Shown here: positions 1 through 44,524 of the stretch, piece after piece
Numbering within the stretch: position 1 is the stretch's first letter
Layout of the letters: each line of letters starts with the position of its first letter
DNA from: Acidobacteriota bacterium
GTDB taxonomy: Bacteria; Acidobacteriota; Vicinamibacteria; Vicinamibacterales; UBA2999
DNA length: 64,000 bases
Direction: 5' to 3'
Assembly: GCA_013140775.1 (NCBI GenBank)
Contig: JABFSA010000040.1
Coordinates: 5,182-69,181 of the forward strand
Notes under the pieces: model-generated
Databases searched by the model: none
The model's input: only the letters and a program-made list of their open reading frames with translations
Told to the model about the DNA's origin: nothing
Translations under genes and position numbers: made by a program

Positions 1-671
1 CCGCGCGCGGCGGGTCGAAAGGGATTCCCGACAAGAACATTCGTCCTCTCGCGGGCCGCACGCTGCTCGAGTACGCTGCCCGCGTCGCCGCCGAGTCAGG
101 TGTCATCGATCGCATCGTGTTGTCTACCGACTCTGATCGCATTGCCGAAGAGGGACGGCGTGTCGGACTCGAGGTTCCGTTCATGAGGCCGGCCACCCTT
201 GCTGGCGACGACACGCCCATGCTGCCGGTCATCGAGCATGCCGTTGACTTCGTGGCGCAGCACGGGTGGGAGCCAGAGATCGTTGTGCTCTTACAGCCCA
301 CGTCACCTCTGCGAACGGCAGGGCATATCCAGACGGCGATCCGCGAGTTACGTGACTCGGGCGCCGACTCTGTTGTCACCGTCCTTGAACTGCCACGACA
401 CCTGTCACCGGATTACGTCATGCGCGTGGAAGACGGACGTCTCGTGCCGTTTCTGCCTGATGGGATGCGCGTGACGCGGCGGCAGGATGCCAGGCTCGCG
501 TTCGTACGCGACGGCACTGTCTACGCTTTCTGGACGAAGACGCTCCGGAATGCCGGCACCATCTATGGAGACGTGTGTCGTCCGCTGGTCATTCCAGCGG
601 AGGTGTCGATCACCATCGACTCGCCTGATGACTGGCGGGAAGCGGAACGACGAATCGCTGCGAAGGCATGA
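1..671 (+). CDS. Acylneuraminate cytidylyltransferase family protein (CMP-ulosonic acid synthetase, NeuA/KdsB-like), 5' partial
   Basis: Frame 3 is open from the window edge and reads ARGGSKGIPDKNIRPLAGRTLLEY..LLQPTSPLR. This is the classic N-terminal signature of CMP-NeuAc-type cytidylyltransferases. ORF-track entry 117..671 is its 3' part. The stop overlaps the next start (ATGA at 668). Confidence 0.85.
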   Translation, partial: ARGGSKGIPDKNIRPLAGRTLLEYAARVAAESGVIDRIVLSTDSDRIAEEGRRVGLEVPFMRPATLAGDDTPMLPVIEHAVDFVAQHGWEPEIVVLLQPTSPLRTAGHIQTAIRELRDSGADSVVTVLELPRHLSPDYVMRVEDGRLVPFLPDGMRVTRRQDARLAFVRDGTVYAFWTKTLRNAGTIYGDVCRPLVIPAEVSITIDSPDDWREAERRIAAKA

Positions 672-1798
672 CCGTCGCCGCCAGCGATCCTCTTGGCGCA
701 GTACGGAACCTGGCGGGGAAGGCATGGCGCCGCGCGCTGGCGGCGCCGCGTCATGGTGTTCGGCTGGTGCGCCGCGCTGGTCGTCTGCGTGAGCAGGCGG
801 AGGCGGCCAGGGCTGAATGGGGTCTCGAGCGGGAGATCGCCCAGGTCGCGCGCGGACGCGGCCCTATCATCGCAGGGCCGTGGCTATCCGAGGTCGGCTT
901 CGAGGTCCTGTACTGGGTTCCGTTTCTGCGATGGTTTCAGGATCGCTATCGCGTAGACCCCGAACGGATTGTCGCGATCTCCCGTGGTGGTGTCGCCGAC
1001 TGGTACGGGGGTATTGCCGGCCGGTATGTCGAGATTTTCGATCACCTCACACCAGAGGAATTCGGTCGTCGCAATCGTGAGCGCCATCAACAGCAGGAAG
1101 CGGGCGGACAGAAGCAGACGACGCCCGGCGACCTCGATGCGCATCTGATCCAGGCTGCACGGGACACACTGCGTCTCTCCGATGCGGCCGTGTGTCACCC
1201 GTCGCTGATGTATCGCCTCTTCAACCGATTCTGGTTTGGAAACAGAGCGCTGGACCTGGTACTGGCGCGCACTCGGTACGAGCCAATCCACGTGGCGCCA
1301 ATGACCGGCATAGGGTTGCCTGAACGATATGTGGCGGCGAAGTTCTACACCGGTGGCGCCGTGTCCGACACGCCCGAAGTTCGCGAGGCCCTGCGCGGCC
1401 TGGTTCGAACGGCCGCAGCACGAATGCCGGTTGTCATGCTGGACACGGGCATGACGACCGACGAGCACGAGGACTATCTCTTTCGCGATATTCCGAACGT
1501 GGTCAGCGTGAGAGAGCACCTCGAGCCGCGATCAAATCTCGGCGTGCAGACGCGGATCATTGCCGGGTCGCGGGGTTACCTCGGTACGTGCGGGAGCCTG
1601 GCGTGGATGGCGCCGATGCTCGGAGTGGATACGCTCGCTGTGTACAGCGAGGAACGATTTCTCGTCTCACACGTCTACTTCGCCGCCCAGGCGTATCGAC
1701 AGTGTGAGTCTGGCCGGTTCGACACACTCGACCTTCGAGCGGCCACCGAGCTCGAAGCGCTGGGTGTGCCCCTGGCTGCAGCTCAAGAACGCATGTGA
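668..1798 (+). CDS. Uncharacterised paralog family A, copy 1 (putative GT-B-like glycosyltransferase)
   Basis: 376-aa ORF. Shares GPWLSEVGFEVLYWVPFLRW, HPSLMY, KFY, DEH and GTCGSLAWMAPMLGV blocks with the ORFs at 5165, 6211 and 7296. ATGA overlaps on both sides. Confidence 0.85.
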   Translation: MTVAASDPLGAVRNLAGKAWRRALAAPRHGVRLVRRAGRLREQAEAARAEWGLEREIAQVARGRGPIIAGPWLSEVGFEVLYWVPFLRWFQDRYRVDPERIVAISRGGVADWYGGIAGRYVEIFDHLTPEEFGRRNRERHQQQEAGGQKQTTPGDLDAHLIQAARDTLRLSDAAVCHPSLMYRLFNRFWFGNRALDLVLARTRYEPIHVAPMTGIGLPERYVAAKFYTGGAVSDTPEVREALRGLVRTAAARMPVVMLDTGMTTDEHEDYLFRDIPNVVSVREHLEPRSNLGVQTRIIAGSRGYLGTCGSLAWMAPMLGVDTLAVYSEERFLVSHVYFAAQAYRQCESGRFDTLDLRAATELEALGVPLAAAQERM

Positions 1799-3504
1799 GG
1801 GGTGCGGCTTCAAGCGCTGCAGGAGCTGGTTCGCCCTGGTGGACGGGACGACGGATTGCTCTCGCGGCAGTTGCAGCTGCGGTCGTCGGTGCTGTCAGCT
1901 TCATCTTCAGGTTCAACACACTCGGTGGAGCGCTTGGCGGTTTCGACAACGACCACTTCATTTACCTGACGCGGACGGACATGCTGCTCTGGGGAGAGCA
2001 GCCGCTGCGCGACTTCGTGGACGCCGAGTTGCGTGGCGCGTGGCCGGCGATGAGCTATCTGGCGTCGGCCTGGGCTCAGCAGATTGGCGGCCGCACGCTC
2101 CTACCGGAGGCATACCTGTGTGCCGGAGCGCTTGCAGTGGCAAGCGCCGTGGTGTTCCTACTCGCGCTCGATTTTTCGAAGCAGTGGGTTATAGCCGCTC
2201 TGGCGGCGGCCACGACTGTGGCCATGGTTCCAAAGCTCTACAACTACCCGAAGGTGCTCGGCCTGACGGCTGCGGTGTTCGCTCTTCGACTTGCCGTCGC
2301 GTCACCGTCCACCGCCCGCCTGGCAGCACTGGCGTTCGTGACGGTCGTCGTGTCGCTCTTTCGGCACGACCTCGGTCTCTATGTGGGGGCCGCAACCCTC
2401 GTAGCGCTTGTCTTGCGCGACCCCGCACAATGGAGACAACTGATTCGACATCTTGCCATCTACACCGGGTGCGCATTGCTGTTCTTACTGCCCTCCCTGG
2501 TGTGGATTCAGTTGTACGAGGGGATTCCGTCGTATGTCCGGAACGCACTGGCAAGTGTCGCCGCGGAACAGACGCGCACACCGCTGACGCTTCCCACGTT
2601 CGACTTCGCCGTCCCGCTGTCAGAAGACAACCTGCTGTTGACCACGTACTGGGCATTCTGGGCGGTTCCGGTGCTCGCGGGATGTGTGCTCCTCGTTCGG
2701 CTGCTGACTTCCGCTGCGTCTCCTGCGGCGCGGCTCGACCGCGCGCTGGCCGGCGGGCTGCTGACGATGGGTGTCCTGGCCAATCAATCGTTTCTTCGAG
2801 CCAACCTGGAATCGCGATTCGGCGACAGCGTCGCCCCGATCGTTCTTCTGGCCGCCTGCAGCGCCGGCGTTGCCTCTGTGTGGCGGTCGCCCGCGATCAG
2901 ACGAACCGTCGCAACTCTGGTGATCGTGCTTCTCACTCAGATGCTCGCGGCTGCGTATTCGTTTTCAGCGCTCGCACTGGAACTCGATACCAGCGGGCTT
3001 TCCGATTCGTGGGGCAAGGTCGAGCGCCGGTATGCCGCTGTGCGCTCAGAGCTCGGTGCTCTGCCTCCGACAGTCTGGAGCTCGAACGTTCCAGGCGCCG
3101 AGACGGCGACGATGCAGGCCGCGGGATATGTCGCGCGATGCACCGCGCCCGACGATCGCTTGCTGGTCACCGGCGCCATCCACGAGATTCCGGTCCTTGC
3201 CCGACGACGGTTTGCCGCTGGACAGGCGATGTTCAAGCTGTCCCTCTACACCTCCGAACGAGATGAACAGCGAGCGTTGGCCAGGCTCAGGAGCCAGTCC
3301 GTGCCCATCATCCTCGCCGACGCACGTGACTACGGAGAAGGCTTTCTCGAGGATTACCCGCTTCTCGCTGGGCACGTCGAAAAGGACTACCGCAACGCGG
3401 GGACGATCGACGTGGATGATGAGCCAGGCTTTGTGGTGTTCGTAGAGAAGGACCGCATCCCCGTGCGCGAGGACGATGAGCTTCGACTGCCGTGCTTCCG
3501 TTGA
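1795..3504 (+). CDS. Uncharacterised paralog family B, copy 1 (polytopic membrane protein, GT-C-like, with C-terminal soluble domain)
   Basis: 569-aa ORF with many hydrophobic segments. N-terminal FRFNTLGGALGGFDNDHF, C-terminal CTAPDD...RRRFAAGQ...LPCFR. Paralogous to the ORFs at 3492 and 9665. Confidence 0.85.
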   Translation: MRGAASSAAGAGSPWWTGRRIALAAVAAAVVGAVSFIFRFNTLGGALGGFDNDHFIYLTRTDMLLWGEQPLRDFVDAELRGAWPAMSYLASAWAQQIGGRTLLPEAYLCAGALAVASAVVFLLALDFSKQWVIAALAAATTVAMVPKLYNYPKVLGLTAAVFALRLAVASPSTARLAALAFVTVVVSLFRHDLGLYVGAATLVALVLRDPAQWRQLIRHLAIYTGCALLFLLPSLVWIQLYEGIPSYVRNALASVAAEQTRTPLTLPTFDFAVPLSEDNLLLTTYWAFWAVPVLAGCVLLVRLLTSAASPAARLDRALAGGLLTMGVLANQSFLRANLESRFGDSVAPIVLLAACSAGVASVWRSPAIRRTVATLVIVLLTQMLAAAYSFSALALELDTSGLSDSWGKVERRYAAVRSELGALPPTVWSSNVPGAETATMQAAGYVARCTAPDDRLLVTGAIHEIPVLARRRFAAGQAMFKLSLYTSERDEQRALARLRSQSVPIILADARDYGEGFLEDYPLLAGHVEKDYRNAGTIDVDDEPGFVVFVEKDRIPVREDDELRLPCFR

Positions 3505-5177
3505 GCCGAGGCGGATCTCGACACGCCAGGTCTCATCCGTTAAGCATCCTGCTGTGCGCGGTCGTCATTGGCATGCTGGCGTTCATTTTGCGGTTCAACT
3601 CACTCAGTGGATCGCTCGGCGGATTCACGAACGACCAGTTCGTTGCGCTGAGCCGGGTCGAGATGATTCTGCAGGGCGAGCAACCGCTGCGCGATTTCGC
3701 CGACGCGGAGTTGCGGGGCGCGTGGCCCGCCCTCAGCTACGAGGCTTCGGCGTGGGCGCAGCAGATGGGCGGCCACACCCTGCTGCCCGAGGCGTACTTG
3801 ACGGTAGGCGCTCTGGTTGTGGCGCAGGTTGTGGTGTTTGCGTTGACCTGGATTGTTTCGGGACGATGGTGGCTCGCGTCACTCGCGACCGCGCTGTGCA
3901 TCGTCTCGATGCCGAGGCTCTACAGTTATCCGAAGGTCCTGATGCTCGCGTGTGGCATCGCCGTGATGCGAGCTGTGATGACAAGGCCATCGAGGTGGAG
4001 ACTGGCGCTTGCGGCGGTCCTTACAGCCGTCGCCGTCCTGTTTCGTCACGATCTCGGCGGTTACATTGCGGTAGCAATCATTGCCGGGCTGGTCGCCCGC
4101 GACCCCGGCGCATGGACGCTGGCTGGCCGCCGCGTCGGAGCCTATCTGGGTTTCACGGCGCTCTGTCTGCTTCCGTCCGCGATCTGGGTGCAGGCATACG
4201 AAGGGATTCCGAGCTACATCCGCAGCAATCTGGATGTGAGTGCTCTCGAGGCCGGCCGGTCCGAGCTCGTCAACCTGCCGATCCCAACGCTCTCGACGCT
4301 GTTCACCACTACCATCCTCGAAGTGCTGACGTACTGGGGCCTGTGGGCGGTCGCTGTCGTTGCGATGATCGTGATCGCCTGGCGAGTCCTCTCGCCAGCT
4401 GGCCGAGCGCTGACTCCAGAGGATCGCGGTTTCTCGATCGGTCTCCTGCTTCTTGGAATTGTGGGCATCCAGTTTCTGGTGAGAGAACCGCTGGATGCCC
4501 GTCTCAGCGACGCGGTGATTCCAGTCTCGGTTCTTGGAGCCTGGACTGTCACTCTTGCCCAGACGCTCACCGTTCCGATCGCTCGTCGTGTGGCGACGCT
4601 GTCGGTGTCGCTGCTCCTTGTGTGCATGGTGGCCGCGAGCGCCGTGTTCATGGGTGTTGGTCGAACCCTCAGCGACAGCGGATTGACCAGCTCTCCCGGA
4701 CGGGTGACCGAGGAGTATCGGCGGGTGCGTGAACGTCTGAGTCAGCTGCCACCGACGGACTGGTCGAATGTGGAGGCCACCGGTTCGCTGGCAGCGGCGC
4801 GATACGTGGCGGAGTGCACCAGTCCTGACGACTATCTGTTGAGCATCGGCGACACGCCGGAAGTCACCGTGTTCGCACGGCGGCGCTTCGCGGCCGGACA
4901 AGGCGTCTTCGCCAAAGGGTGGTACACGTCTGATATCGAGCAGCGCAGAGCGATCGCCAAACTGGAGTCGCAGTCTGCGCCAATCATGCTGGCCGACGCG
5001 GGATCGTACGAGTCCGATTTCGTGCCGCGGTATCCACTCGTAGCGCACCATGTGGCTGCTCACTACCGAAAGGTTGGCGAGATTCCAGACGAATCCAGGC
5101 CGCTGCTGGTGTTTGTCGATACCGCCCGTGAACCACGCGGCACCGACCCTCACTTCGGACTTCCGTGCTTCAGGTGA
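3492..5177 (+). CDS. Uncharacterised paralog family B, copy 2 (polytopic membrane protein)
   Basis: 561-aa ORF. LRFNSLSGSLGGFTNDQF ... CTSPDD ... RRRFAAGQ ... LPCFR. GTG start at 3492, or TTG at 3501 overlapping the upstream stop. Confidence 0.85.
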   Translation: MLPLSRGGSRHARSHPLSILLCAVVIGMLAFILRFNSLSGSLGGFTNDQFVALSRVEMILQGEQPLRDFADAELRGAWPALSYEASAWAQQMGGHTLLPEAYLTVGALVVAQVVVFALTWIVSGRWWLASLATALCIVSMPRLYSYPKVLMLACGIAVMRAVMTRPSRWRLALAAVLTAVAVLFRHDLGGYIAVAIIAGLVARDPGAWTLAGRRVGAYLGFTALCLLPSAIWVQAYEGIPSYIRSNLDVSALEAGRSELVNLPIPTLSTLFTTTILEVLTYWGLWAVAVVAMIVIAWRVLSPAGRALTPEDRGFSIGLLLLGIVGIQFLVREPLDARLSDAVIPVSVLGAWTVTLAQTLTVPIARRVATLSVSLLLVCMVAASAVFMGVGRTLSDSGLTSSPGRVTEEYRRVRERLSQLPPTDWSNVEATGSLAAARYVAECTSPDDYLLSIGDTPEVTVFARRRFAAGQGVFAKGWYTSDIEQRRAIAKLESQSAPIMLADAGSYESDFVPRYPLVAHHVAAHYRKVGEIPDESRPLLVFVDTAREPRGTDPHFGLPCFR

Positions 5178-6211
5178 CTGCGAACGCGTCGCAGGGCACT
5201 CTTGGAAGCAGGGCGCGGAAGCTCGTGCCGTCGCCGGTTCGTCGTGTTGCGGCGCGCTTCGTGTCGGAGCGGCGCGCGGCAGCGATTCAACGTGAACTGG
5301 CAGCCCTGGCCGCGAGGGATGAGCCCATCATGGTTGGCCCCTGGCTGGGCGAGGTCGGCTTTGAACTTCTGTACTGGGTGCCCTTCCTTCGATGGTTCAC
5401 CTATGAATATGGCGTCCCTCCCGATCGAATCATCGCCGTCGCTCGAGGGGGCAGTGCGAACGCGTGGTATGCATCGTTTGCCGGACGCACGTACGATGCG
5501 CTGTCCTTTATCCCTCCACAGGACTTCAAGCGTCGAAACCTCGATCGCAGTGGATCGCTCGGGGAGCAGAAGCAGATCGCTTCGACCGCGCTCGACGAAG
5601 AGATCATCGGGTTCGTCAGGAAGAGCGAAGGACATGACGTCGCTGTACTGCACCCATCGACGATGTACAGGCTGTACGGTCCGTACTGGTGGGGACACCA
5701 GCCGGTGGGGTGGGTCAGGAGCTTCATGAGGTTCGAGCGGCTGCAGTCTCCGCCGCTCGCAGTGGATCTGCCATCCGAGTACACGGCTGTGAAGTTTTAC
5801 TTCAACGACTGTTTCGCTGACACGCCACGCAACCGTGTCTTTGTCGAGCACACGGTTCGCGGTCTCGCAGCTGACGGACCGGTGATCTCGCTCTCCACTG
5901 GTCTTGCGGTTGACGACCATGATCCGTGCGAGCCGGACATTGCCGCAATGCAAGGCATCAGGCATCTGCTCACGCCAGACACGAACCTGCTCGTGCAGTC
6001 GGCGATTGTTGCCGGCGCTCGGAGGTTTGTCGGGACGTACGGTGGGTTTGCGTATCTGGCCCCGCTGTGCGGTGTGCCGGCCTCGAGCTACTACTCGGAG
6101 CCCGGGTCGTTCTCGTTGCGCCATCTCGATCTCATCCGCGACGTCCTTCGCACGGAGAACAGTCCTGGCCTTCTCGAGGTCACGGACGTCGGAAGGGGAT
6201 CCGGCCGCTGA
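5165..6211 (+). CDS. Uncharacterised paralog family A, copy 2
   Basis: 348-aa ORF. GPWLGEVGFELLYWVPFLRW, HPSTMY, KFY, DDH, GTYGGFAYLAPLCGV. Start is GTG 5165, or GTG 5174 (GTGA overlap with the B2 stop). Confidence 0.8.
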   Translation: MLQVTANASQGTLGSRARKLVPSPVRRVAARFVSERRAAAIQRELAALAARDEPIMVGPWLGEVGFELLYWVPFLRWFTYEYGVPPDRIIAVARGGSANAWYASFAGRTYDALSFIPPQDFKRRNLDRSGSLGEQKQIASTALDEEIIGFVRKSEGHDVAVLHPSTMYRLYGPYWWGHQPVGWVRSFMRFERLQSPPLAVDLPSEYTAVKFYFNDCFADTPRNRVFVEHTVRGLAADGPVISLSTGLAVDDHDPCEPDIAAMQGIRHLLTPDTNLLVQSAIVAGARRFVGTYGGFAYLAPLCGVPASSYYSEPGSFSLRHLDLIRDVLRTENSPGLLEVTDVGRGSGR

Positions 6212-7299
6212 TGGGTATCGGTGCGCGATGGCGCTCCAGGGCTCACCGCATTGGTGAACAGTGGACCACGTGGCGCAGTCAGTGGGAGGTCGAACGGGAT
6301 CTGGAGCAGGCCGTCAGCGGCTCCGGACCGATTGTTGTCGGGCCCTGGCTTTCCGAGGTTGGCTACGAGGTTCTGTACTGGGTCCCGTTTCTTCGATGGG
6401 TGTCCGCCGCTTATCGCGTACCAGCATCACGGTTCGTCATCCTGTCCCGCGGAGGTACTGAAAGCTGGTATCGGGATATCGGATCACGCTACGTCGAGAT
6501 CTTCGATCACATTCGCGCGGATGAACTGGTGAGCATGGCGGGAACTCGGGACTCGGGGCTCGGGACTCGGGATTCGAAATCCGTACGTCAGGCCGTCAAG
6601 CAGCGAACCGTATCCGACCTCGACGTTCATCTGGTCAGCAAAGCGGCGCAGTCCCTGGGCCTCGGCGATTCGGTCAACGTCCTGCATCCGTCACTGATGT
6701 TCCGATGGTTCGCGCCTTTCTGGTCGGGGCAGGAGACGCTCGGATTTGTCGAGCGTCATACCAGGCATGCGCGGATTCAGGCTCCAGAGATCGATCTTCC
6801 GCTCTCGTTGCCTTCCGAGTACGTGGCGGTGAAGTTCTACGGCGCTCGTTCGCTCCCCGACGATCCCTTCACGCGCACACAGGTGCGTGCGCTCACCGAG
6901 GCCTTGAGCCAGCAGCTGCCGATTGTGCAGCTCGACACCGGGTTGAGCCTCGACGACCATGCTGACTTGCGTCTGCCGACTGGTCCGCGTGTGATGAGCA
7001 TCGGCGGACTTGTTGAACCGCGCACCAACCTTGCCGTGCAGACGCGCATCATCGCCGGAGCACGCATGCTCGTGGGCACGTGCGGCAGCCTCTCGTGGCT
7101 TGGACCTCTGCTCGGTGTGCCGACCGTGCCGGTGTTCACCGACGATTCGTTCCTTCACGCCCATTTGCATGTCGCGCGCAGGGTCTACGGTCGCGTTGGC
7201 GGCGGACGGTTCTCGCCGCTCGATCTCACCGGCCTCATGGCCGCCGGCCTGACGATCGGTCGCGCCGAGGCGATTGCCGCGGAGACACTGCGCGGATGA
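6211..7299 (+). CDS. Uncharacterised paralog family A, copy 3
   Basis: The long ORF 5926..7299 was trimmed to ATG 6211, which overlaps the upstream TGA by 1 nt. GPWLSEVGYEVLYWVPFLRW, HPSLMF, KFY, DDH, GTCGSLSWLGPLLGV. Confidence 0.8.
   Translation: MGIGARWRSRAHRIGEQWTTWRSQWEVERDLEQAVSGSGPIVVGPWLSEVGYEVLYWVPFLRWVSAAYRVPASRFVILSRGGTESWYRDIGSRYVEIFDHIRADELVSMAGTRDSGLGTRDSKSVRQAVKQRTVSDLDVHLVSKAAQSLGLGDSVNVLHPSLMFRWFAPFWSGQETLGFVERHTRHARIQAPEIDLPLSLPSEYVAVKFYGARSLPDDPFTRTQVRALTEALSQQLPIVQLDTGLSLDDHADLRLPTGPRVMSIGGLVEPRTNLAVQTRIIAGARMLVGTCGSLSWLGPLLGVPTVPVFTDDSFLHAHLHVARRVYGRVGGGRFSPLDLTGLMAAGLTIGRAEAIAAETLRG
6541..6576 (+). repeat. Degenerate 7-nt tandem repeat (GGNNCTCG-like, about 5 units), including a 14-nt direct duplication, inside family A copy 3
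   Basis: ggaactcg ggactcg gggctcg ggactcg ggattcg. ctcgggactcgg occurs twice 14 nt apart. It encodes GTRDSGLGTRDS in the linker that differs from the other three paralogs. Confidence 0.7.
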
Positions 7300-8489
7300 A
7301 GATCCCCAACGTGACGCGCGCTGCGATCAACCTCGCAGGGGTTCGTCTCCGAAGAGTCGAACGACAGTGGCGTGCGGCGGAGACCGCGCTCGGTCGCATG
7401 GGGCGTCAGGCCCGACGACAACAGGAACGCCTCGTGCGTGCCCCCGAACTGGTTCGCACCCGCGTGCAGCAGGGATGCGCAGCCGTCGAGCGATCGAGAA
7501 AGAGGGTCGTACGGTTCGGCGACCATGTGGTCAGCCCGTACCGCGTCGAGCGCGGCGTCAAACGTGTGCTGGCGAGCGAGGCTGCCGGGTCGAGGCCGAT
7601 CATCGTCGGTCCCTGGACATCCGAGGTCGGCTACGAGGCGCTCTACTGGCTTCCGTTTCTCGCATGGGCGGCCGACCACTACGGCGTCAGGCCTGAGCGC
7701 CTGATCGCGTTGTCACGCGGCGGGACCGACGCCTGGTACGCGGGCATCGCGAATCGCTACGTCGAGATCTTCGATCTCGTGGACCCTGCAGAATTCGCCA
7801 GGCAGGGGGCGGCGCGCAGGGAACGCGGCGACCAGAAGCAGATGACGTTGTCGGAGTTCGACCACGAGCTCATTCGTCGCGCCACCGCCCGGCTCGGTGT
7901 GCGCGACGCAGCGGTGTGGCATCCGGGACTCATGTATCAGTTGTTCCGCGCATTCTGGTACGGCGACCGGTCACTTGATTTTCTGGTTCGCCACACGGAC
8001 TTCCGGCGCCTCCGTCGTCCGGCCGCCTCGGGCCTGTCGCTGCCCGATGGTTACGTGGCTGTGAAGTTCTATACCGGTCCAGCGCTGCCAGATTCCGAGG
8101 CCAATCGGGCGCTTCTGCTGGGTCTTGTGCGGAAAGTGGCAGCGCGAACGCCGGTGGTCATGCTCGATACGGCCTGGAGCGTGGACGAACATCGGGACTA
8201 CGACTTCGACGGAATTCCTGGTGTCACAACCATTCGCCCTTCGTTGGATCCGCGGACAAACCTGGGTCTGCAGACGCAGGTGATTGCGGGGGCTCGACGA
8301 TTCATTGGGACCTGCGGCGGGCTCGCCTGGCTTGCGCCGCTTCTCGGAGTCGATACGACGGCCGTTTACGAAGACGATCGATACCTGACAACTCATCTTT
8401 ACGCGGCGAAGTATGCGTACCGCCGGACCGACGCGGCGCGCTTGACGACGCTCAATGTGAAGGCGCTGCGCGCCGTGGAGCGGTTCTAG
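7296..8489 (+). CDS. Uncharacterised paralog family A, copy 4
   Basis: ORF 7080..8489 trimmed to ATG 7296 (ATGA overlap with the upstream stop). GPWTSEVGYEALYWLPFLAW, HPGLMY, KFY, DEH, GTCGGLAWLAPLLGV. Confidence 0.8.
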   Translation: MKIPNVTRAAINLAGVRLRRVERQWRAAETALGRMGRQARRQQERLVRAPELVRTRVQQGCAAVERSRKRVVRFGDHVVSPYRVERGVKRVLASEAAGSRPIIVGPWTSEVGYEALYWLPFLAWAADHYGVRPERLIALSRGGTDAWYAGIANRYVEIFDLVDPAEFARQGAARRERGDQKQMTLSEFDHELIRRATARLGVRDAAVWHPGLMYQLFRAFWYGDRSLDFLVRHTDFRRLRRPAASGLSLPDGYVAVKFYTGPALPDSEANRALLLGLVRKVAARTPVVMLDTAWSVDEHRDYDFDGIPGVTTIRPSLDPRTNLGLQTQVIAGARRFIGTCGGLAWLAPLLGVDTTAVYEDDRYLTTHLYAAKYAYRRTDAARLTTLNVKALRAVERF

Positions 8490-8502
8490 TGGTGAATTTC
8501 TG

Positions 8503-9651
8503 ATGGCGATACAGTCGATTCTCGTTACCGGCGGCGCGGGTTACATCGGTTCACATCTTGTTGACCGCCTGTGCACGCGTGGCTACTCCGTCACGGTGCT
8601 GGACAGTCTGGAGCCGCAGGTTCATCGCAGCGGCACGTGGCCGTCTTACGCCAATCCGAAAGTTCGCTACGTCCAGGGAGACGTCAGGGATCGAGCGGTG
8701 TTCGAGCCGCTCGTCGTCTCGTCGGACGCTGTCGTTCACTTTGGCGCAGCCGTGAGCGTTGGCCAGAGCATGTATCAGGTGGATCGCTACGTGGACGTCA
8801 ATACGCGTGGCACCGCGTTGCTCCTCGACATCCTGGTCAACGCGAAACACAACGTTCAGAAGCTTCTCGTGGCATCGTCCATCGGTGTCTACGGGGAAGG
8901 GGCGTACCACTGCGCAACCTGCGGGCCCGTTGCGCCAGGTATCCGGCCAACCGAGCAGCTTGCCGAACGTGACTGGGAACAGCACTGTCCGCGTTGCGGC
9001 AAACACGTCATTTCGATTCCGACGCCCGAGGACAAGGCGCTCTATCGCGACAACATCTATTCGATGACGAAGTACCACCAGGAAGAAATGGTGCTGCTCA
9101 TCGGGAAGACCTACGGCATTCCAGCTGTGGCTCCCAGGTTCTTCAATGTGTATGGTCCGCGACAGAGTTTGAGCAATCCGTACGCCGGCGTCGCGGCGAT
9201 CTGGTTGAGCCGGCTGCTGAACGGCAAGCAGCCGGTGGTCTTCGAGGATGGCGGGCAGCTTCGCGATTTTGTCTCCATTCACGACGTCGTCGATTGTCTC
9301 GTGCTGATGCTCGAAAAATCCGGCGCAGACTTCCTTCCAGTGAACGTTGGTTCGGGTGAGGTCGTGACGATTCTGAACATCGCCAAGCTGCTGGCGCGCC
9401 TGCTCGGTTCCTCCATTGAGCCGCTCGTCACGGAAACCGGAAGAAAGTTCGACATCCGTCACAACACCGCCGACATCACGTGCGCCAGAACGACGCTCGG
9501 TTTCGAGCCGAAGGTATCGCTCGAACAGGGGTTCAGTGAGCTCATTGAGTGGGCGAAGACCACGCCCGATGCCGCCGAGGACTTCTTCGACCGTGCGCTG
9601 CGGGAGCTGCAGGATAAAGGTCTGCTTGTAACAGGAACGGCGCCGCAGTGA
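8503..9651 (+). CDS. NAD-dependent epimerase/dehydratase (extended SDR) with an inserted CxxC...CxxC zinc-ribbon-like segment
   Basis: TGGAGYIGSHL Rossmann motif, ASSIGVYG, and YSMTK (YxxxK). An insertion CATCGPVAPGIRPTEQLAERDWEQHCPRCG lies between the catalytic Ser and Tyr regions. Confidence 0.85.
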   Translation: MAIQSILVTGGAGYIGSHLVDRLCTRGYSVTVLDSLEPQVHRSGTWPSYANPKVRYVQGDVRDRAVFEPLVVSSDAVVHFGAAVSVGQSMYQVDRYVDVNTRGTALLLDILVNAKHNVQKLLVASSIGVYGEGAYHCATCGPVAPGIRPTEQLAERDWEQHCPRCGKHVISIPTPEDKALYRDNIYSMTKYHQEEMVLLIGKTYGIPAVAPRFFNVYGPRQSLSNPYAGVAAIWLSRLLNGKQPVVFEDGGQLRDFVSIHDVVDCLVLMLEKSGADFLPVNVGSGEVVTILNIAKLLARLLGSSIEPLVTETGRKFDIRHNTADITCARTTLGFEPKVSLEQGFSELIEWAKTTPDAAEDFFDRALRELQDKGLLVTGTAPQ

Positions 9652-9664
9652 CAGGGGCTGCGTA

Positions 9665-11641
9665 GTGTCCGGCTTCAGCCGGACCACAGACGCGACCCGC
9701 AGTCGCCTGACTGGCGCCTTGCTCGCGATCTCTGTGTTCGTTGCGGCCTTCTTCTACCGGTTCAACACCCTGGGTGGTTCGCTCGGCGGTTTCACCAACG
9801 ACGAGTTCGGCTATCTTTCGCGGGCCCGGCAGATTCAGGCCGGGGAAGTGCCGTTTCGCGACTTCAACGATCCAGGCTGGTTTCTCACCGACTGCGTCGC
9901 GGCAGCCGCGCAGTGGCTTGGAGGCTACAACCTCCGCTCCGAAGCGCTGCTGACTGTCGGCATGCTGGCCCTTGGGGCTGCGGCCATCTTCCTGCTGGCG
10001 CGACGCGCGGCCGGCTCAACGGTAGTGGCGCTCGTCGCCGTCGCCATCTACGTCGCACTCGATACTCGACACTACAACTACCCGAAGATCGTGCTCTACG
10101 CCGCGGGTCTGACGCTGGCGTGGGCGTACGCCGACGCCCCGAGCCTCGCCCGTCGGCTGGGACTCGGTGCGCTCCTAGGTATCGCCTTTCTGTTTCGACA
10201 CGATCACCTGGTCTACCTCGGCGCACTGTCTTTGATGACGGTTGGGGCGGTTCACCACGCGTCGCCACGTGAGGCGATGCGTGCCGCTCTCGGCGTGGGC
10301 GCCGCGGCCGCGTGCTTCGTCGTCCCGTTTCTCGTGTTTCTGGCCACGAATGGTGGCGTTGTGGAGTACTTCCGTTCGGCCCTCGTGTATGTCTCCCGCG
10401 ACGCGCAGCGCACGACGTTCGCTTTTCCGCGCCTCTCGATCGAGCCTACGCTCCCCTGGGTCGGACTATCGCGTGGACCGGCGCCTGTCGATCCACGTAT
10501 CAACATTCGATGGAACTCCGTGGCAGACGATGCCCGGCGCGAGCGGGAGGCTCGTTGGAAGCTCGAAGCAGGTGAGGCGCTCGATGGCAGCACCTGGAGC
10601 TACGTGATCCGCGACACATCCGTGGCGAACATCGAGGCTCTGGTTCGCGATCCACTGGTAGACGACACGCAGGGTTTGAATCGGACGACGTTCATGTTGT
10701 CTGGTGAGCCGAGACCTCTCAGGGTCAGAAGCCAGCTGGATACCGTGCAGAACGCCACCGCGTTCCTGTATTACCTGTTTGCGGCGCTTCCCATCGTGGC
10801 CGCGTGCGCGTTCTGGCGGATGCGTCGTGCAGGCGCCACCGCTCGAGTGCTGACAAGCGCGGCGCACATCGTGCCGCTTCTCGTCCTTGCCGCCATACTC
10901 AACGCTACGTTCCTGAGTCGTGGAAGTACAAACATCCGGATCCCCGACGTCGGCGTGACCGCCACCGTGCTCCTCGCATGGTTAGTGTCGGCGATCGCCG
11001 GACGCGATGGCCGAACGTTGGTCACTGTTCCTTCCGCCAGGGTGTTGGTGCGTGCAGCCGCGGCCGTCGTGCTGTTCCTGACGATTCTCAGCGCCAATGG
11101 CCTTGCTCAGGCAAGCCGTGCGTGGAGCGACGCAGGCTTCGCGGACGGACCGGGCGAGCTCGTGCGTCGGGCGGGCGTCGTGTGGGACGGACTGGGAGCG
11201 CCGCCGAGCGACTTCGTGGCAGATGAGGAACAGCCGGGTATCCTGAGGGTCGCCGGGTATGTGAATGCCTGCACGTCACCGGGCGATCGGTTGTTCGTGC
11301 TGGGCGAGCATCCGGCGCTGTACTACTTCGCCGATCGCCTGTTCGCAGGCGGTCATGCGTGGCTGCTCCCGTATTATTACAGCGGAGATGCCGACGAGGC
11401 GCTGATAGTCGAGCGCCTCAAGAGCGCCCGTGTGCCTATCGTGTTGACTGAAACGGGAGTGACGTACGACGAAGATTACCGCGGTGTGTTCGAGCAGGTG
11501 CACGCCTACCTGCAAGATGCCTACACGGATGCAGGCGAGGTGCAGTACGGCGGCTCTCAACCGTTGCGGTTGCTGGTCCGTGCGGATCTGACGCCGATAC
11601 GGCGATACGAGCCCCTCAATCTTCCCTGTTTCACTCCATGA
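9665..11641 (+). CDS. Uncharacterised paralog family B, copy 3 (polytopic membrane protein)
   Basis: 658-aa ORF, GTG start. YRFNTLGGSLGGFTNDEF ... CTSPGD ... LNLPCFTP. It has a longer central region than copies 1 and 2. Confidence 0.85.
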   Translation: MSGFSRTTDATRSRLTGALLAISVFVAAFFYRFNTLGGSLGGFTNDEFGYLSRARQIQAGEVPFRDFNDPGWFLTDCVAAAAQWLGGYNLRSEALLTVGMLALGAAAIFLLARRAAGSTVVALVAVAIYVALDTRHYNYPKIVLYAAGLTLAWAYADAPSLARRLGLGALLGIAFLFRHDHLVYLGALSLMTVGAVHHASPREAMRAALGVGAAAACFVVPFLVFLATNGGVVEYFRSALVYVSRDAQRTTFAFPRLSIEPTLPWVGLSRGPAPVDPRINIRWNSVADDARREREARWKLEAGEALDGSTWSYVIRDTSVANIEALVRDPLVDDTQGLNRTTFMLSGEPRPLRVRSQLDTVQNATAFLYYLFAALPIVAACAFWRMRRAGATARVLTSAAHIVPLLVLAAILNATFLSRGSTNIRIPDVGVTATVLLAWLVSAIAGRDGRTLVTVPSARVLVRAAAAVVLFLTILSANGLAQASRAWSDAGFADGPGELVRRAGVVWDGLGAPPSDFVADEEQPGILRVAGYVNACTSPGDRLFVLGEHPALYYFADRLFAGGHAWLLPYYYSGDADEALIVERLKSARVPIVLTETGVTYDEDYRGVFEQVHAYLQDAYTDAGEVQYGGSQPLRLLVRADLTPIRRYEPLNLPCFTP

Positions 11642-12084
11642 TGATTCGCTTCGACCAGCTTCGGGACTATCGCCAGCAGGTGGCGATGGTTGACGGCGCA
11701 TTCGATCCGTTGCACCGCGGCCACATTGAGTACTTCAGAGCGGCCAGCACACTCGAGGTGCCGCTCCTGTGCAATGTGGCGTCTGACGCGTACGTTCGGA
11801 CCAAGCACCAGCCGCTCCTGTCGGAAGATCAGCGTGCGGCCGTGGTGGATGCCATCAGATACATTTCCTACACGCACATCAATCAGTTCGATACCGAAAC
11901 CATTCTCCGGGAGCTGCGTCCCAAGTACTACGTCAAGGGCAAGGACTGGGAAGGCAGGCTACCGGGTGAGCAGGTACGCATCTGCGCCGAGCATGGCATC
12001 GGCGTCGTCTATCTCGATACCGTGCTCGATTCGTCGAGCCGGATTCTCAACGAGTTCCTGTCCGCGAAGCAGAGCACACGATGA
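11638..12084 (+). CDS. Cytidylyltransferase-like small nucleotidyltransferase (TagD / RfaE domain II type)
   Basis: 148 aa. GAFDPLHRGHIEYF carries the HxGH motif. The size and the KGKDW..L region fit the glycerol-3-phosphate cytidylyltransferase family. ATGA overlap with upstream. Confidence 0.75.
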   Translation: MMIRFDQLRDYRQQVAMVDGAFDPLHRGHIEYFRAASTLEVPLLCNVASDAYVRTKHQPLLSEDQRAAVVDAIRYISYTHINQFDTETILRELRPKYYVKGKDWEGRLPGEQVRICAEHGIGVVYLDTVLDSSSRILNEFLSAKQSTR

Positions 12085-12749
12085 ACATTACCGAGTTCGA
12101 GCAGCGAGTTCTCGATCAACGTCCCGTCAGCTCCGGTCACTACGATGCCGAGTACTTCACCGGCGAATGGCGTGATGCCGGCAACAACTACAGCCTGGAG
12201 ACGCGACGCCAGATCGAGGCCAGGAATCCGTTCCTCATCAAAGAGGTCTTTCAGCCGACGAAGGCGCTCGACCTTGGATGCGGGCCAGGCGCGCTCATGC
12301 ACCTGCTCTGGGAGCTTGGTGTAGACATCGATGGTATCGATTTCGCGGAGAGCAGCAAGCAGCTGGCGACGCCACAAGTGCGTGACCGCATCGTCGTGGG
12401 CGAGGTCTACGATCAGACGATCAAGTCAGCCGGAGCCTACGACCTGGTCATCTGCCGGGAAGTGCTCGAGCACCTGACCGTCCTGCAGGTGAAACAGGCT
12501 GTCGCCAACATGGTGCGGTTGTCGTCGAAGTACATCTACGTGACGACGCGCTTCCATCCCAATCCGGCCAGCCTGCTGGATTTCACCACGCAGTTCGACG
12601 TCGATCCATCGCACATCACGCTGTTGAACAAGGACATGCTGCGCCTGATGTTCGTGCTCGAAGGCTGTCGCTCGAGGCCGGATCTCGAGGCACGGATGGA
12701 CTGGGGCAACAAGGGCAGGGTGCTCGTCCTCGAAACCCAGGCTCGATGA
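12081..12749 (+). CDS. Class I SAM-dependent methyltransferase
   Basis: LDLGCGPGALMHLL (motif I) and ICREVLEHL. ATGA overlap with the upstream gene. Confidence 0.8.
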   Translation: MNITEFEQRVLDQRPVSSGHYDAEYFTGEWRDAGNNYSLETRRQIEARNPFLIKEVFQPTKALDLGCGPGALMHLLWELGVDIDGIDFAESSKQLATPQVRDRIVVGEVYDQTIKSAGAYDLVICREVLEHLTVLQVKQAVANMVRLSSKYIYVTTRFHPNPASLLDFTTQFDVDPSHITLLNKDMLRLMFVLEGCRSRPDLEARMDWGNKGRVLVLETQAR

Positions 12750-12756: not shown

Positions 12757-13875
12757 ATGATTCCGCTGGCGGATCTTCGCGAGCAGTATCGCCGCCTGAA
12801 GTCCGAGATCGACCCGGCCATCGCGGCCGTGCTCGAGAATGCGCAATTCGTGCTGGGGCCGGCGGTTGAGAACTTCGAGCGCCAGTTCGCCTCCTATTGC
12901 GGCGTCTCACATGCGATTGGCGTGAACTCCGGCACCAGCGCGTTGCACATCGCGCTGCTGGCAGCCGGGATCGGTCCGGGCGACGAGGTCATCACCGTTC
13001 CCTTTACGTTTGTTGCCACGATCGCCGCCATCGAGTACGCGGGCGCGACGCCGGTGTTCGTGGATATCGAGCAGGACACCTGCACGATGGACCCGTCAAA
13101 GCTGGAGCGAGCTATCACTCCGCGGACGAAGGCGTTGATGCCGGTGCACCTCTTCGGGCACCCGGCTGACATGGATCCGATCGCGGAGATCGCCCGCCGG
13201 CACACGCTCGTCGTCATCGAGGACGCCTGCCAGGCCCATGGAGCCGAGTACAAGGGCCGTCGAGCCGGGTCGATGTCCGAGATCGGGTGCTTCAGTTTCT
13301 ATCCAGGTAAGAACCTGGGTGCTTATGGCGAGGGCGGAGCTGCGGTCACCAACAACGCGCAATACGCCGACACCATGCGGTTGCTCCGCAGCTGGGGCGA
13401 ACGGACCCGATACGAGCATTCGATCAAGGCGTTCAACTACAGGATGGATGGCATCCAGGGAGCGATTCTTGGCGTCAAGATGAAGCACCTGGAACCGTGG
13501 ACCGAAGCCCGGCGGGCACTTGCAGCCACCTACGATCGGCTGCTTGCCGGGAGCCCGGCGTCCCCGCCGAAAGCGCGGCAGGACGTCCGGCACGTGTATC
13601 ACCAGTACGCCGTGCGCCTCGAACAGCGCGACCGCTGGCGTGCCCACCTTGCCGACAGAGGCATTCAGACGGCCGTGCACTATCCGGTGCCGCTTCACCT
13701 CCAGCCCGCCTATCGTGACCTTGGCTACGGCGTCGGAGATTTTCCGGTGGCCGAATCAGTCGCCCGTGAAATTCTCTCGCTGCCGTTCTTTCCTGAGATG
13801 ACCGATCCGCAAGTGCAGGAAGTGGCGGGTGTACTTCGTGCGGGACTTCCGGCAAACGCCGGCAGCGTCGCGTAA
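12757..13875 (+). CDS. DegT/DnrJ/EryC1/StrS family PLP-dependent sugar aminotransferase
   Basis: GVNSGTSALHIAL, FSFYPGKNLGAYGEGGAV (PLP lysine), HVYHQYAV and PVPLHLQPAY. Confidence 0.9.
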   Translation: MIPLADLREQYRRLKSEIDPAIAAVLENAQFVLGPAVENFERQFASYCGVSHAIGVNSGTSALHIALLAAGIGPGDEVITVPFTFVATIAAIEYAGATPVFVDIEQDTCTMDPSKLERAITPRTKALMPVHLFGHPADMDPIAEIARRHTLVVIEDACQAHGAEYKGRRAGSMSEIGCFSFYPGKNLGAYGEGGAAVTNNAQYADTMRLLRSWGERTRYEHSIKAFNYRMDGIQGAILGVKMKHLEPWTEARRALAATYDRLLAGSPASPPKARQDVRHVYHQYAVRLEQRDRWRAHLADRGIQTAVHYPVPLHLQPAYRDLGYGVGDFPVAESVAREILSLPFFPEMTDPQVQEVAGVLRAGLPANAGSVA

Positions 13876-13958
13876 GGGTCCTGATCGGGCTCTAAGCCCA
13901 AAGGGTACAGATAGATGGCAAGATCGTCCGCAGACGTGCGTTACAATACCGTCTCCCG

Positions 13959-14882
13959 ATGATCGACTGCATCGCCGGATATCACCTGAACCCTTGGACG
14001 TGTGGGATCGCCAAGTTCAACACCATCCTCGGGCGGCACCTGTCGCTGCCCGTCGTGGGTATCGGGTCGCCAGATTTGGATCGCTACACGCGCCCCCTGT
14101 TGTCCCTCAAGATGTCGGAGTTCGCGGAGGGCGACGCACACACGCTGGACGCGTGGGTGGCAGAACACACAGGACGGTACGAGCTGTTCCTGCATGCCTG
14201 GGATCGGACGCCGACCGAGGACAGGCTGATCGCGCGCGCCGCCAGAGTGTGCGTCGGGAACCGCGAACTGTTCGAACAACTCGTCCCGACCCGACCCGAT
14301 GTCGTCGAGCTCTTCTGCCCGGGAACGCTGCTCAACCCACAGCGCTTCCAGCGCACGGACCTCTCGGTGTTCACCTTCGGGATGGCACACAAGATCCGGG
14401 TGCCGCTGTATCGCCGGCTTCATCGCCTGCTGGAAGCCACCGGGAAGAGCTATTCGGTCTACGTCTCAACAGCCCTCCACGAAAACACCAGCTTTGACGA
14501 CTCGTTCATCGTCCGGTTCGAGGAACTGCAGGCGATTTTTGGCGAGCACGTCTATTTCATGGGGTACCTGTCAGACACGGCCGTGTTCAATCACATCGTG
14601 GACTGCACGTTTCTCGCCGCCTTCTTTGAGAAGGGGCTTCGGGCAAACAACACCAGCGTGATTGCCGCGATGGAATGCGGGTGCGCCGTGATCACGAACC
14701 TGGACGAGCATTCGCCCAGGGGACTTGCGCACATGAAGAATGTGATCGACATCAACGTCTGCGATCGGCTGCCGGATTTCGACCAGGCCGAAAAGATCGG
14801 TCGTGCGGCGCGCGAGATCACGCAGACAGATTACGGCTGGGATCAACTCGTGGCGCAGCTTCGGCCGGCTGTGCGCGTCTAG
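13959..14882 (+). CDS. Hypothetical protein, divergent GT-B (GT1/GT4-like) C-terminal half
   Basis: 307-aa ORF with coding-like codon bias. FFEKGLRANNTSVIAAMECGCAVITN resembles the E..G....EAM..G.PVI block of GT4 enzymes. The N-terminal half is not recognisable. Confidence 0.55.
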   Translation: MIDCIAGYHLNPWTCGIAKFNTILGRHLSLPVVGIGSPDLDRYTRPLLSLKMSEFAEGDAHTLDAWVAEHTGRYELFLHAWDRTPTEDRLIARAARVCVGNRELFEQLVPTRPDVVELFCPGTLLNPQRFQRTDLSVFTFGMAHKIRVPLYRRLHRLLEATGKSYSVYVSTALHENTSFDDSFIVRFEELQAIFGEHVYFMGYLSDTAVFNHIVDCTFLAAFFEKGLRANNTSVIAAMECGCAVITNLDEHSPRGLAHMKNVIDINVCDRLPDFDQAEKIGRAAREITQTDYGWDQLVAQLRPAVRV

Positions 14883-14892
14883 GAGCTGGCAT

Positions 14893-15969: not shown

Positions 15970-16778
15970 CCAGCGCTCTCTTCCGACTCGACAACCAGAC
16001 GGCCGTCGTCACGGGGGCATGCGGCAAGCTCGGTCCGATCTGGGCCGAGGCACTGCTCGATGCCGGGGCAAGTGTCGCTGCGCTGGAATTGGCCGGTGCG
16101 CGCGAGTCCGCCGTTTTTGCCGCCCTGTCCGAGCGTTCAGGAGACCGGCTGCGTCGCTTCGACTGCGATGTGACCAACCGTGCGTCGATTCAGCAGGCAG
16201 CCGATGCCGTTGCGGCGCAGCTGGGCGAGCCGTCGGTTCTCGTCAACAACGCGGGCGTGGATCAGCCTCCAGATTCGGGAGGTAACCGCGCGCCGATCGA
16301 CCAGTTGGCGATCGAGGACTTCCGCCGGATGGTCGAAGTCAATCTGCTCGGCACGTTTCAGATGACGCAGGTCTTTGGCGGCCGAATGGCCGGCGGGCAG
16401 GGCGGCGCCATTATCAACATCGGATCGCTCTACGCCTCCGTGTCGCCGGACCAACGCTTCTACGATCATCTTCCCGGCGATCTCCCGTTCTTGAAGTCTC
16501 CAGCCTACGGCGCGTCCAAAGCGGCCGTCGTGAACATGACGAAGTACTTCTCGACGCTCTGGGGTACACAGGGCGTGCGCGTCAACACCCTGTCTCCCGG
16601 CGGTGTGCTCGCCGGTCAGGACGAGAAGTTCCGGTCGAAGTACGGAGCGCGGGTCCCGCTCGGTCGCATGGCGGAGGCGGACGATCTCAAGGGCCCACTC
16701 GTATTTCTGGCCTCGCGAGCCTCGTCGTATGTCACCGGCTACGAGCTGCGGGTGGACGGAGGCTTTACCGCGTGGTAA
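15966..16778 (+). CDS. Short-chain dehydrogenase/reductase (classical SDR)
   Basis: VVTGACGKLG, NNAG and YGASKAAV (YxxxK). GTGA overlap with the NeuB-like stop. Confidence 0.85.
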   Translation: MTSALFRLDNQTAVVTGACGKLGPIWAEALLDAGASVAALELAGARESAVFAALSERSGDRLRRFDCDVTNRASIQQAADAVAAQLGEPSVLVNNAGVDQPPDSGGNRAPIDQLAIEDFRRMVEVNLLGTFQMTQVFGGRMAGGQGGAIINIGSLYASVSPDQRFYDHLPGDLPFLKSPAYGASKAAVVNMTKYFSTLWGTQGVRVNTLSPGGVLAGQDEKFRSKYGARVPLGRMAEADDLKGPLVFLASRASSYVTGYELRVDGGFTAW

Positions 16779-16786
16779 GCGGCACT

Positions 16787-18259: not shown

Positions 18260-18263
18260 AACG

Positions 18264-23547: not shown

Positions 23548-23553
23548 ACACTG

Positions 23554-42187: not shown

Positions 42188-42266
42188 GCTTGGATTATTG
42201 CGCGTCTTCAGGCAGCGGCGTGCGATGACCGGGACGCATTTCGCGCCCGAGGCCAGACCGACTACA

Positions 42267-43194: not shown

Positions 43195-43201
43195 CGGCTG
43201 G

Positions 43202-44518: not shown

Positions 44519-44524
44519 TGATCC

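Follow-up and report, generated by a model that had tools for sequence, protein, structure and literature searches.

Two families of paralogous proteins, here called A (soluble) and B (polytopic membrane proteins), are encoded side by side at the start of a 64,000-nucleotide stretch of DNA from a soil acidobacterium of the Vicinamibacterales type, the whole of which is referred to as the window. Both are real, uncharacterised new families inside known superfamilies of glycosyltransferases (GTs): on sequence each is new, while the predicted fold is GT-B and distantly GT9-like for A, and GT-C for B. Building on the structure models, we consider it fairly probable that the A proteins are cytoplasmic GT-B enzymes which assemble a conserved glycan, probably with ulosonic acid in it, with the B proteins as accessory periplasmic GT-C decorators. 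The locus type comprises two large families invisible to standard annotation and consists of a conserved four-enzyme core with variable membrane decorators, linked to the synthesis of ulosonic acids.

Nine genes on the forward strand, from a truncated CMP-ulosonate synthetase through A1, B1, B2, A2, A3, A4 and an extended short-chain dehydrogenase/reductase (SDR) to B3 (Table 1), form a translationally coupled operon because start and stop codons overlap along the gene row. The stop codon of the synthetase overlaps the start of A1; A3 begins with an ATG at 6211 that shares bases with the stop codon of A2 (TGATG) and is preceded by GGAAGGGGA, and A4 begins at 7296 with an ATG interlocked with the A3 stop (ATGA). 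Of the nine junctions between the synthetase and the gene behind B3, six show overlaps of 1-13 bases, and 13-base gaps lie on both sides of the SDR. This is the gene order given in an earlier sequence-only reading of the window, which had also nested the array in a CMP-sugar locus directly behind a CMP-sugar synthetase. The first gene is a fragment of a PseF/CMP-ulosonate synthetase (NCBIfam TIGR03584, E 3.4e-25, profile positions 44-218), and the surrounding 36 kb are a glycan locus.

A tblastn search over the 64 kb recovers exactly four A and three B copies, and none beyond A1-A4 and B1-B3. Pairwise identities of 36-52% among A1-A4 (tblastn E 1e-58 to 1e-104) and of 47% between B1 and B2 (E 1e-140) place the paralogy within A and within B far beyond chance. 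B3 reaches only 29-39% identity with these two and contains an insertion of about 90 residues, located in the loop after the helix matching B1 residues 244-261. The motifs that had been read from the translations are present in the alignments: GPW..EVG.E.LYW.PFL.W, HP..M(Y/F), KFY, D(E/D)H and GT(C/Y)G(G/S) in A, and RFN..G.LGGF.ND.F after the first transmembrane (TM) helix together with a C-terminal LPCF in B. The one small deviation is in A3, which has LGP where LAP had been given.

Sequence and predicted fold of the two families

Pfam and NCBIfam were scanned with all nine genes and with 30 members of each family one by one. For neither family does either database yield a significant match, be it with the window proteins or with the 30 members, and A1-A4 have no Pfam match at E≤1; both family profiles find chance-level matches only when compared with the sequences of the Protein Data Bank (PDB). 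The proposal that neither family can be assigned from sequence therefore stands. What can be picked up are faint hints: in NCBIfam, B3 weakly matches a family of putative glycosyltransferases, LA_3751/3752 (E 0.066), three of the 30 A members give weak matches of Glyco_transf_9 (PF01075; best E 0.11), and the C-terminal part of A4 weakly matches heptosyltransferase I (TIGR02193, E 0.035), scoring 13 bits where the cutoff is 185. By profile, GT9 membership of A (PF01075/TIGR02193) does not reach the threshold.

AlphaFold2 models of A1 and B1 were built from 30-sequence alignments and compared with the PDB by Foldseek. The A1 model (pLDDT 84, pTM 0.82) has a long Arg-rich helix near its N terminus (residues 8-61) and, behind it, two Rossmann-like domains in which strands and helices alternate in two blocks, residues 67-200 and 222-355. 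It fits the GT-B superfamily, for which two such alpha/beta domains around a cleft and a C-terminal helix that crosses back are characteristic. Foldseek returns 40 matches at E≤1e-3 (best E 1.9e-5, TM-scores 0.3-0.45), and the best 50 matches listed are all GT-B, among them the GT9 enzymes WaaF 1psw, WaaC 2h1h and TibC 4rap as well as 3tov, the GT1 structure 6j32 and UDP-GlcNAc 2-epimerases. No hydrophobic or TM segment is found in the A proteins.

The GT9 family (WaaC, WaaF, TibC; PF01075) resembles A in more than the fold: its members are soluble, work at the cytoplasmic membrane face and use lipid-linked acceptors, as those of A presumably do, and the locus contains a nucleotidyltransferase like RfaE domain II. 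In an hhalign comparison of the A profile with Escherichia coli WaaC, A 241-329 is weakly aligned with WaaC 198-282 (E 0.013, probability 3%). This alignment covers the GT9 donor-binding segment G-x-D-[ST]-G-x-x-H-L-A and pairs the A segment IAGA..FVGT.G..AWLAPLLGV.T.AVYS with WaaC LAGAKFVVSVDTGLSHLTAALDRPNITVYG, the GT9 signature His being Trp or Tyr in A as far as so weak an alignment tells. The corresponding comparison with WaaF gives E 0.16. A differs from GT9 in that the best Pfam or NCBIfam E-values are only 0.035-0.11, in its own invariant motifs (GPW..EVG.E, HP, KFY and D-E/D-H), in the long N-terminal helix, and in its setting, as GmhA and the kinase of the heptose pathway are not found in the window.

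Three His residues are invariant in A: H177, H267 and H335. The HP motif occupies residues 177-178 in the N-terminal domain, after the fourth strand, and D-E/D-H residues 265-267 in the C-terminal domain. In sialyltransferases of families GT38, GT52 and GT80 a D/E-D/E-G motif in the N-terminal domain is followed by HP in the C-terminal domain. A sialyltransferase-type GT-B of these three families was considered for A and rejected, the motif order being reversed and no such structure standing among the best 50 Foldseek matches listed. The wider group of sialyl and Kdo transferases with HP adds GT99 and GT107; its members share with A the GT-B fold, an invariant His-Pro and the linkage to a CMP-ulosonate synthetase, but the HP of A precedes its acidic motif, none of the five families is represented among those 50 matches, and there is no Pfam match.

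The B1 model (pLDDT 87, pTM 0.89) combines a bundle of many membrane helices with a soluble domain of about 130 residues at the C terminus. All 16 Foldseek matches at E≤1e-3 are GT-C structures, with ArnT 5f15 as the best (E 3.7e-7), DPY19, STT3/OST and AftA also among them, and ALG12, PglB, EmbB and Pmt4 at weaker E-values. The motif RFN..G..GGF.ND lies directly after TM1 (residues 18-41) and is followed by short helices at 52-65 and 86-98. D53 is invariant in 30 sequences and N52 nearly so, and the catalytic Asp of several solved GT-C structures is found in the same place as this motif loop (PMC11127046). The GT-C superfamily is characterised by a polytopic domain with juxtamembrane helices in the first extracytoplasmic loop and a conserved acidic residue after TM1, and the B1 model agrees with this. 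Arg residues precede TM1, and the C-terminal domain contains an invariant Cys pair, C449 and C567, the latter in LPCF; both features would be compatible with a periplasmic active site.

Like ArnT (GT83) and further GT-C_A enzymes (DPY19, STT3/PglB, AftA, EmbB, PMT), B combines a predicted multi-helix membrane domain and a C-terminal soluble domain with a first loop, predicted to be extracytoplasmic, that holds two short helices and a conserved Asp right after TM1. Unlike them, it has no sequence-profile similarity to any of these enzymes, and its RFN..G..GGF.ND motif is family-specific. Membership in the ArnT/PMT families (GT83, GT39; PF02366, PF13231) was accordingly rejected for B, there being no sequence-profile match. 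GT9 and ArnT/PMT had been named beforehand as examples of families to which strong matches, in a described locus type, would refute the proposal: the folds that we find are theirs, yet the likeness stays at the level of the fold, and the proposal is not refuted on this count. Were they characterised, A and B would probably call for new CAZy families.

Genomic neighbourhoods of A and B

Both families reach far beyond the window. In a database clustered at 90% there are at least 1755 homologs of A1 and at least 281 of B1 at E≤1e-3, and an exhaustive search with the A profile finds 1643 clusters at 50% identity, 816 of them with E≤1e-30. Wherever a homolog of A1 or B1 comes with a source name, this name is 'hypothetical protein', and the rare organism names are those of metagenome-assembled genomes (MAGs) of Acidobacteria. 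A plasmid search with A1 (tblastn) has no match, and with P0256, a divergent tandem A-A protein, as the query only hypothetical proteins are returned.

To describe the company that these genes keep, 71 A-centred loci were collected from species-representative genomes, most of them labelled Vicinamibacterales or Acidobacteriota, along with a B-centred set of 33 metagenome loci of at least 8 kb. Two or more A copies occur in 59 of the 71 A-centred loci, and as many as six are packed into about 21 kb. About 30 of the 71 have B no more than 10 kb away, and A is present in 23 of the 33 B-centred loci, so that the two families do co-occur outside this genome. In this survey the number of B copies turns out to be variable, and A is mostly found in several copies with NeuB. 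Fifty of the A-centred loci measure 15 kb or more; among these, NeuB and a CMP-synthetase each appear within 10 kb of A in 41, a small nucleotidyltransferase in 42, a methyltransferase in 43 and an SDR homolog in 48. The genes directly upstream of B are more mixed: among 115 B genes, 34 follow an A gene, 24 follow another B gene, 15 follow an A gene with one intervening gene (SDR), and 42 follow neither A nor B.

Eight syntenic loci allow a closer look at the array. A1, A2, A3 and A4 each have a one-to-one ortholog there, in the same order and at 60-83% identity (60-80% for A1, 61-78% for A2), while identity between paralogs stays at 33-53%. Because the orthologs exceed the paralogs to this extent, the A1-A4 quartet is old and functionally differentiated. 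B3, placed after the SDR, has orthologs of 60-74% identity, and the arrangement A4-SDR-B3 is conserved. The B complement, by contrast, changes from locus to locus: there are no B genes in L002 and L003, only B3 in L005 and L006, B1 and B3 in L001, L007 and L046, all three in the window and in L082, and all three with one extra B in L078 and L096. Since A1-A4 persist without B and the B count varies from 0 to 4, B has the standing of an accessory: optional decoration modules would be expected to vary in this way, obligatory partners of A would not.

Two distant complete genomes, L157 (CP030885.1) and L158, contain A domains that are 26-44% identical to those of the window. Here A stands beside NeuB, a homolog of the 307-aa protein of the window and a fused nucleotidyltransferase-methyltransferase, and B is absent. 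As these distant genomes keep the NeuB neighbourhood without B, the deepest conserved association of A is with the NeuB-based ulosonic-acid pathway and not with B. The pairing of A with B that the sequence-only reading had suggested is weakened by these genomes and by the B-free loci above. Its idea of a cytoplasmic step together with a membrane or periplasmic one is reasonable, given a soluble GT-B for A and a polytopic B with its motif on a predicted periplasmic loop; only the coupling of the two is not obligatory.

The A domain also occurs in larger proteins. Many A clusters are proteins of 850-920 residues in which another soluble GT-B-like domain precedes the A domain; further architectures are tandem A-A proteins and one A fused to a sulfotransferase, all of them typical of polysaccharide synthases. 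The N-terminal domain of these fusions (about 480-500 residues) was considered as a B-like partner in a Rosetta-stone fusion and rejected, as it is soluble and GT-B-like instead, with a weak Glyco_transf_4 match and a conserved SWDNLTNKG motif; it is unrelated to the 574-aa protein of the window. Ahead of the A domain, P0262 and P0265 have a hydrophobic and then a basic stretch, P0273 a weaker hydrophobic and then an Arg-rich stretch. These stretches would fit an association with the membrane surface.

The MAG labels Acidimicrobiia, Bifidobacteriaceae and Gammaproteobacteria, which might imply a wide taxonomic spread, were not accepted as evidence of one. In L034 (Bifidobacteriaceae) and L053 (Acidimicrobiia) the comparable neighbour genes are mostly 68-84% identical to window proteins, so these contigs are probably mis-binned Vicinamibacterales DNA. 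Among other MAGs under such labels, Actinobacteria included, L023 and L026 have no comparable neighbours and L062 has only NeuB, at 32%.

A possible division of labour and its alternatives

How might the two families work together? The WecA-like enzyme of the locus would start a glycan linked to polyprenyl diphosphate. A1-A4, as soluble Leloir-type GT-B enzymes that are probably associated with the membrane surface, would then extend the lipid-linked glycan on the cytoplasmic face, and because the paralogs are ancient and position-specific, each would probably make a different linkage of the conserved structure. At least one A probably transfers an ulosonic (nonulosonic-type) acid that NeuB and the CMP-synthetase encoded nearby supply in CMP-activated form; an alternative donor may be the product of the small nucleotidyltransferase-methyltransferase pair. 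The B enzymes, with the catalytic loop and D53 facing the periplasm, would move a sugar from a polyprenyl-phosphate donor onto the exported glycan. As the number of B genes varies between otherwise identical loci, we read them as optional side-branch decorators that may diversify the glycan. Whereas paralogy, gene structure, folds, genomic associations, conserved motifs and the varying number of B genes are shown by the analysis, the activities, topology, donors, acceptors and order of steps in this scheme are inferred. The SDR before B3 may tailor the B donor, as an SDR epimerase does in the GT136 system (PMC11127046).

By analogy with the Gtr, GT136 and Emb/Aft systems, such a cytoplasmic GT-B assembly with subsequent periplasmic GT-C decoration would follow a familiar principle, on which GT-C families continue to be newly established (PMC11127046). 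Of the undescribed glycan-elaboration system that had been proposed for the array, the uncharacterised families thus remain, whereas the logic of the system is already known. GT136, from the pentofuranose system of Citrobacter youngae, is a new GT-C family with an adjacent SDR epimerase that performs periplasmic glycosylation after polymerisation (PMC11127046). B resembles it, and the three-component GtrA/GtrB/GtrC systems, as an unclassified GT-C in a polysaccharide locus with an adjacent SDR epimerase and a variable presence that gives diversity; it differs from them in having several paralogs per locus, many directly after a GT-B gene. The mycobacterial arabinan enzymes EmbA/B/C and AftA-D likewise comprise several GT-C paralogs per organism, which presumably form a different linkage each and take their sugar from a lipid-phosphate donor, and AftA and EmbB are among the structural matches of B1. 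Differences are the absent sequence similarity, the different phylum and envelope, and the lack of identified decaprenyl-phosphoribose pathway genes.

Several observations weigh against this division of labour. Neither A nor B belongs at the sequence level to any characterised family, the Foldseek E-values are modest with TM-scores of 0.3-0.5, A has Cys or Tyr in place of the Asp of the GT9 motif D-[ST]-G, and an hhalign comparison of B with E. coli ArnT finds nothing (E 0.26). Most loci come from one order, so that shared synteny inflates the co-occurrence counts. The 574-aa protein of the locus is a rival candidate for the ulosonate transferase, and A need not be one. Finally, neither a TM-bearing GT2 lipid-phosphate-sugar synthase of the GtrB/ArnC type nor a GtrA, Wzx or MATE-like flippase is found in the 36 kb locus, the search having covered genes inside the window, which sets B apart from the three-component systems and means that the supply route for the B donor is missing there. 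The multi-TM open reading frames (ORFs) in 1-36 kb are only B1-B3, the WecA-like enzyme and the Wzy_C protein, and the two GT2 genes (26420-28374) resemble soluble GT2 models and lack any hydrophobic segment.

A further reading we regard as doubtful: A, with its more than 1600 clusters, could be an unclassified 'sialyltransferase-like' family on a GT9-like scaffold for NeuB-derived ulosonic acids or their modified forms, or could supply lipid-linked donors directly to the adjacent B, in a two-component periplasmic route that does without the usual GT2 synthase.

Unlikely in our view are two proposals that change the chemistry of one family each. In the first, A would be a TagF-like GT-B phosphotransferase that adds a phospho-alcohol, for example glycerol phosphate or a methylated phospho-amino-alcohol, from a CDP-activated donor made by the small nucleotidyltransferase-methyltransferase pair. 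TagF-type enzymes use catalytic histidines, and A has three that are invariant; the CTP_transf_like gene found near A in 42 of the 50 loci, which in the distant genomes adjoins A in fusion with a methyltransferase, also matches the glycerol-3-phosphate cytidylyltransferase TagD (TIGR01518, E 8e-9). Its best NCBIfam match, however, is the heptose-1-phosphate adenylyltransferase domain, Glyphos_transf (PF04464) has no match at E≤10 in 30 A members, and a TagF-type structure is absent among the best 50 A1 Foldseek matches listed, which are populated by GT9, GT1 and epimerases. In the second, B would comprise oligosaccharyltransferases or protein glycosyltransferases (PglB/STT3, PMT, DPY19-like) acting on envelope proteins. 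Foldseek does place STT3/PglB, the C-mannosyltransferase DPY19 and Pmt4 at E-values similar to those of ArnT and AftA, but Pfam STT3 and PMT have no match in 30 B members even at E≤10, and a WecA-like initiating enzyme together with Wzy_C is what one expects of a polysaccharide pathway. Copy-number variation as seen for B is moreover typical of side-chain modification modules (PMC11127046).

Least of all do we expect A and B to be true pairs, with a membrane-peripheral A making a polyprenyl-phosphate-linked donor in place of a GT2 GtrB/ArnC synthase and the adjacent B using it: the missing synthase, the basic N-terminal helix on A, the 34 B genes directly after A with 15 more after A and SDR, and minimal A-B cassettes in L009, L010, L014 and L147 are outweighed by quartets and distant genomes that do without any B, by four to six B copies with a single A in L016, L021, L057 and L061, by the 42 B genes with no A nearby upstream, and by A2 and A3, which never adjoin a B gene in the conserved array.

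Vicinamibacterales are among the most abundant soil bacteria. To our knowledge, nothing is known about their surface glycans, and a search of the literature on Vicinamibacteria glycosyltransferases found nothing relevant. The main value of the locus lies in a large GT-B family, unseen so far, that is tied to ulosonic-acid loci of these bacteria; if characterised, it could provide new enzymes for nonulosonic-type sugars.

Sugar-supply genes and other features of the window

Table 1 Genes of the A/B operon and of the adjoining glycan locus in the window
Feature	Position	Strand	Remarks
CMP-ulosonate (PseF/NeuA-like) cytidylyltransferase, C-terminal part	117-671	+	gene cut by window start; TIGR03584 match
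A1	668-1798	+	376 aa, soluble, predicted GT-B fold
B1	1795-3504	+	569 aa, polytopic membrane protein, predicted GT-C fold
B2	3492-5177	+	561 aa, GT-C paralog
A2	5165-6211	+	348 aa, GT-B paralog, most divergent of A1-A4
A3	6211-7299	+	362 aa, GT-B paralog
A4	7296-8489	+	397 aa, GT-B paralog, longer N-terminal helical extension
SDR	8503-9651	+	extended SDR sugar epimerase/dehydratase
B3	9665-11641	+	658 aa, GT-C paralog with insertion
CTP_transf_like nucleotidyltransferase (RfaE-domain-II/TagD-like)	11638-12084	+	Pfam/NCBIfam
SAM methyltransferase	12081-12749	+	overlaps nucleotidyltransferase gene
PseC/DegT aminotransferase	12757-13875	+	
Unannotated 307-aa protein	13959-14882	+	no match in Pfam or NCBIfam
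NeuB-family ulosonate synthase	14803-15969	+	ORF
SDR (second)	15966-16778	+	
Aldehyde dehydrogenase	within 16772-25362, before 18391	+	
Second CMP-ulosonate synthetase	18391-19191	+	
Transketolase-like (ThDP) enzyme, then HAD phosphatase	between 19191 and 21826	+	
574-aa soluble protein	21823-23547	+	weak Capsule_synth (KpsC/KpsS-like) match, E 3e-4
WecA/MraY-type polyprenyl-phosphate sugar-phosphate transferase fused to CoA_binding_3	23554-25362	+	

The SDR of the operon matches Pfam Epimerase (E 5e-45) and GDP_Man_Dehyd (E 7e-41). Between residues of about 135 and 173 it has an inserted Cys4 segment (CATCG...CPRCG) with weak Zn_ribbon Pfam matches; such a Cys-x2-Cys ... Cys-x2-Cys insertion is unusual for enzymes of the GalE/RmlB type.

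Behind B3, the small nucleotidyltransferase and the methyltransferase correspond to the fused genes of the distant genomes, which encode 367-369 residues (L157 8614-9723, reverse strand; L158 18199-19302, forward strand). The genes at 12757-16778 are sugar-supply genes that travel with family A. The 307-aa protein among them is kept beside NeuB at 47-74% identity, the distant genomes included, and its C-terminal part (FFEKGLRANNTSVIAAMECGCAVITN) resembles the EX7E region of the GT4 type; because of this resemblance it may be another hidden glycosyltransferase.

On the forward strand at 14803-21826, NeuB, SDR, aldehyde dehydrogenase, CMP-synthetase, transketolase-like enzyme and HAD phosphatase make up an unusual ulosonate-type block, the order of which is also found in L153 and L017. 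This mix of genes suggests a non-standard keto-acid sugar pathway. The order of the 16772-25362 block recurs in L153, and the 574-aa protein is conserved in L153, L017 and L070. Further downstream follow one GT1/GT4-type and two GT2 glycosyltransferases, dTDP-rhamnose-type and UDP-glucose dehydrogenase genes and the Wzy_C protein.

Related contigs extend the picture to the region upstream of the window start. They contain an unannotated protein of 887-895 residues (coordinates tied to it are L153 1-1437, L155 1-1377 and L156 760-3447), another NeuB, a UDP-GlcNAc 2-epimerase-type gene, a methyltransferase and a CMP-synthetase; in L155 and L156 a complete CTP_transf_3 gene stands directly before the A1 ortholog. 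Judging by its size, and by the A-domain match that syntenic loci show about 7 kb upstream, the 887-895-aa protein is probably an A-domain fusion.

Two observations concern the remainder of the window. On the reverse strand at 39680-46366, a fusion of AMP-binding, PP-binding and acyltransferase domains, the unannotated ORFs 42262-43227 and 43202-44518 and a carbamoyltransferase possibly form a separate lipid- or glycan-modifying cluster. An ORF of 483 residues with about nine hydrophobic segments and no Pfam match lies at 55404-56855 on the reverse strand, well away from the glycan locus.

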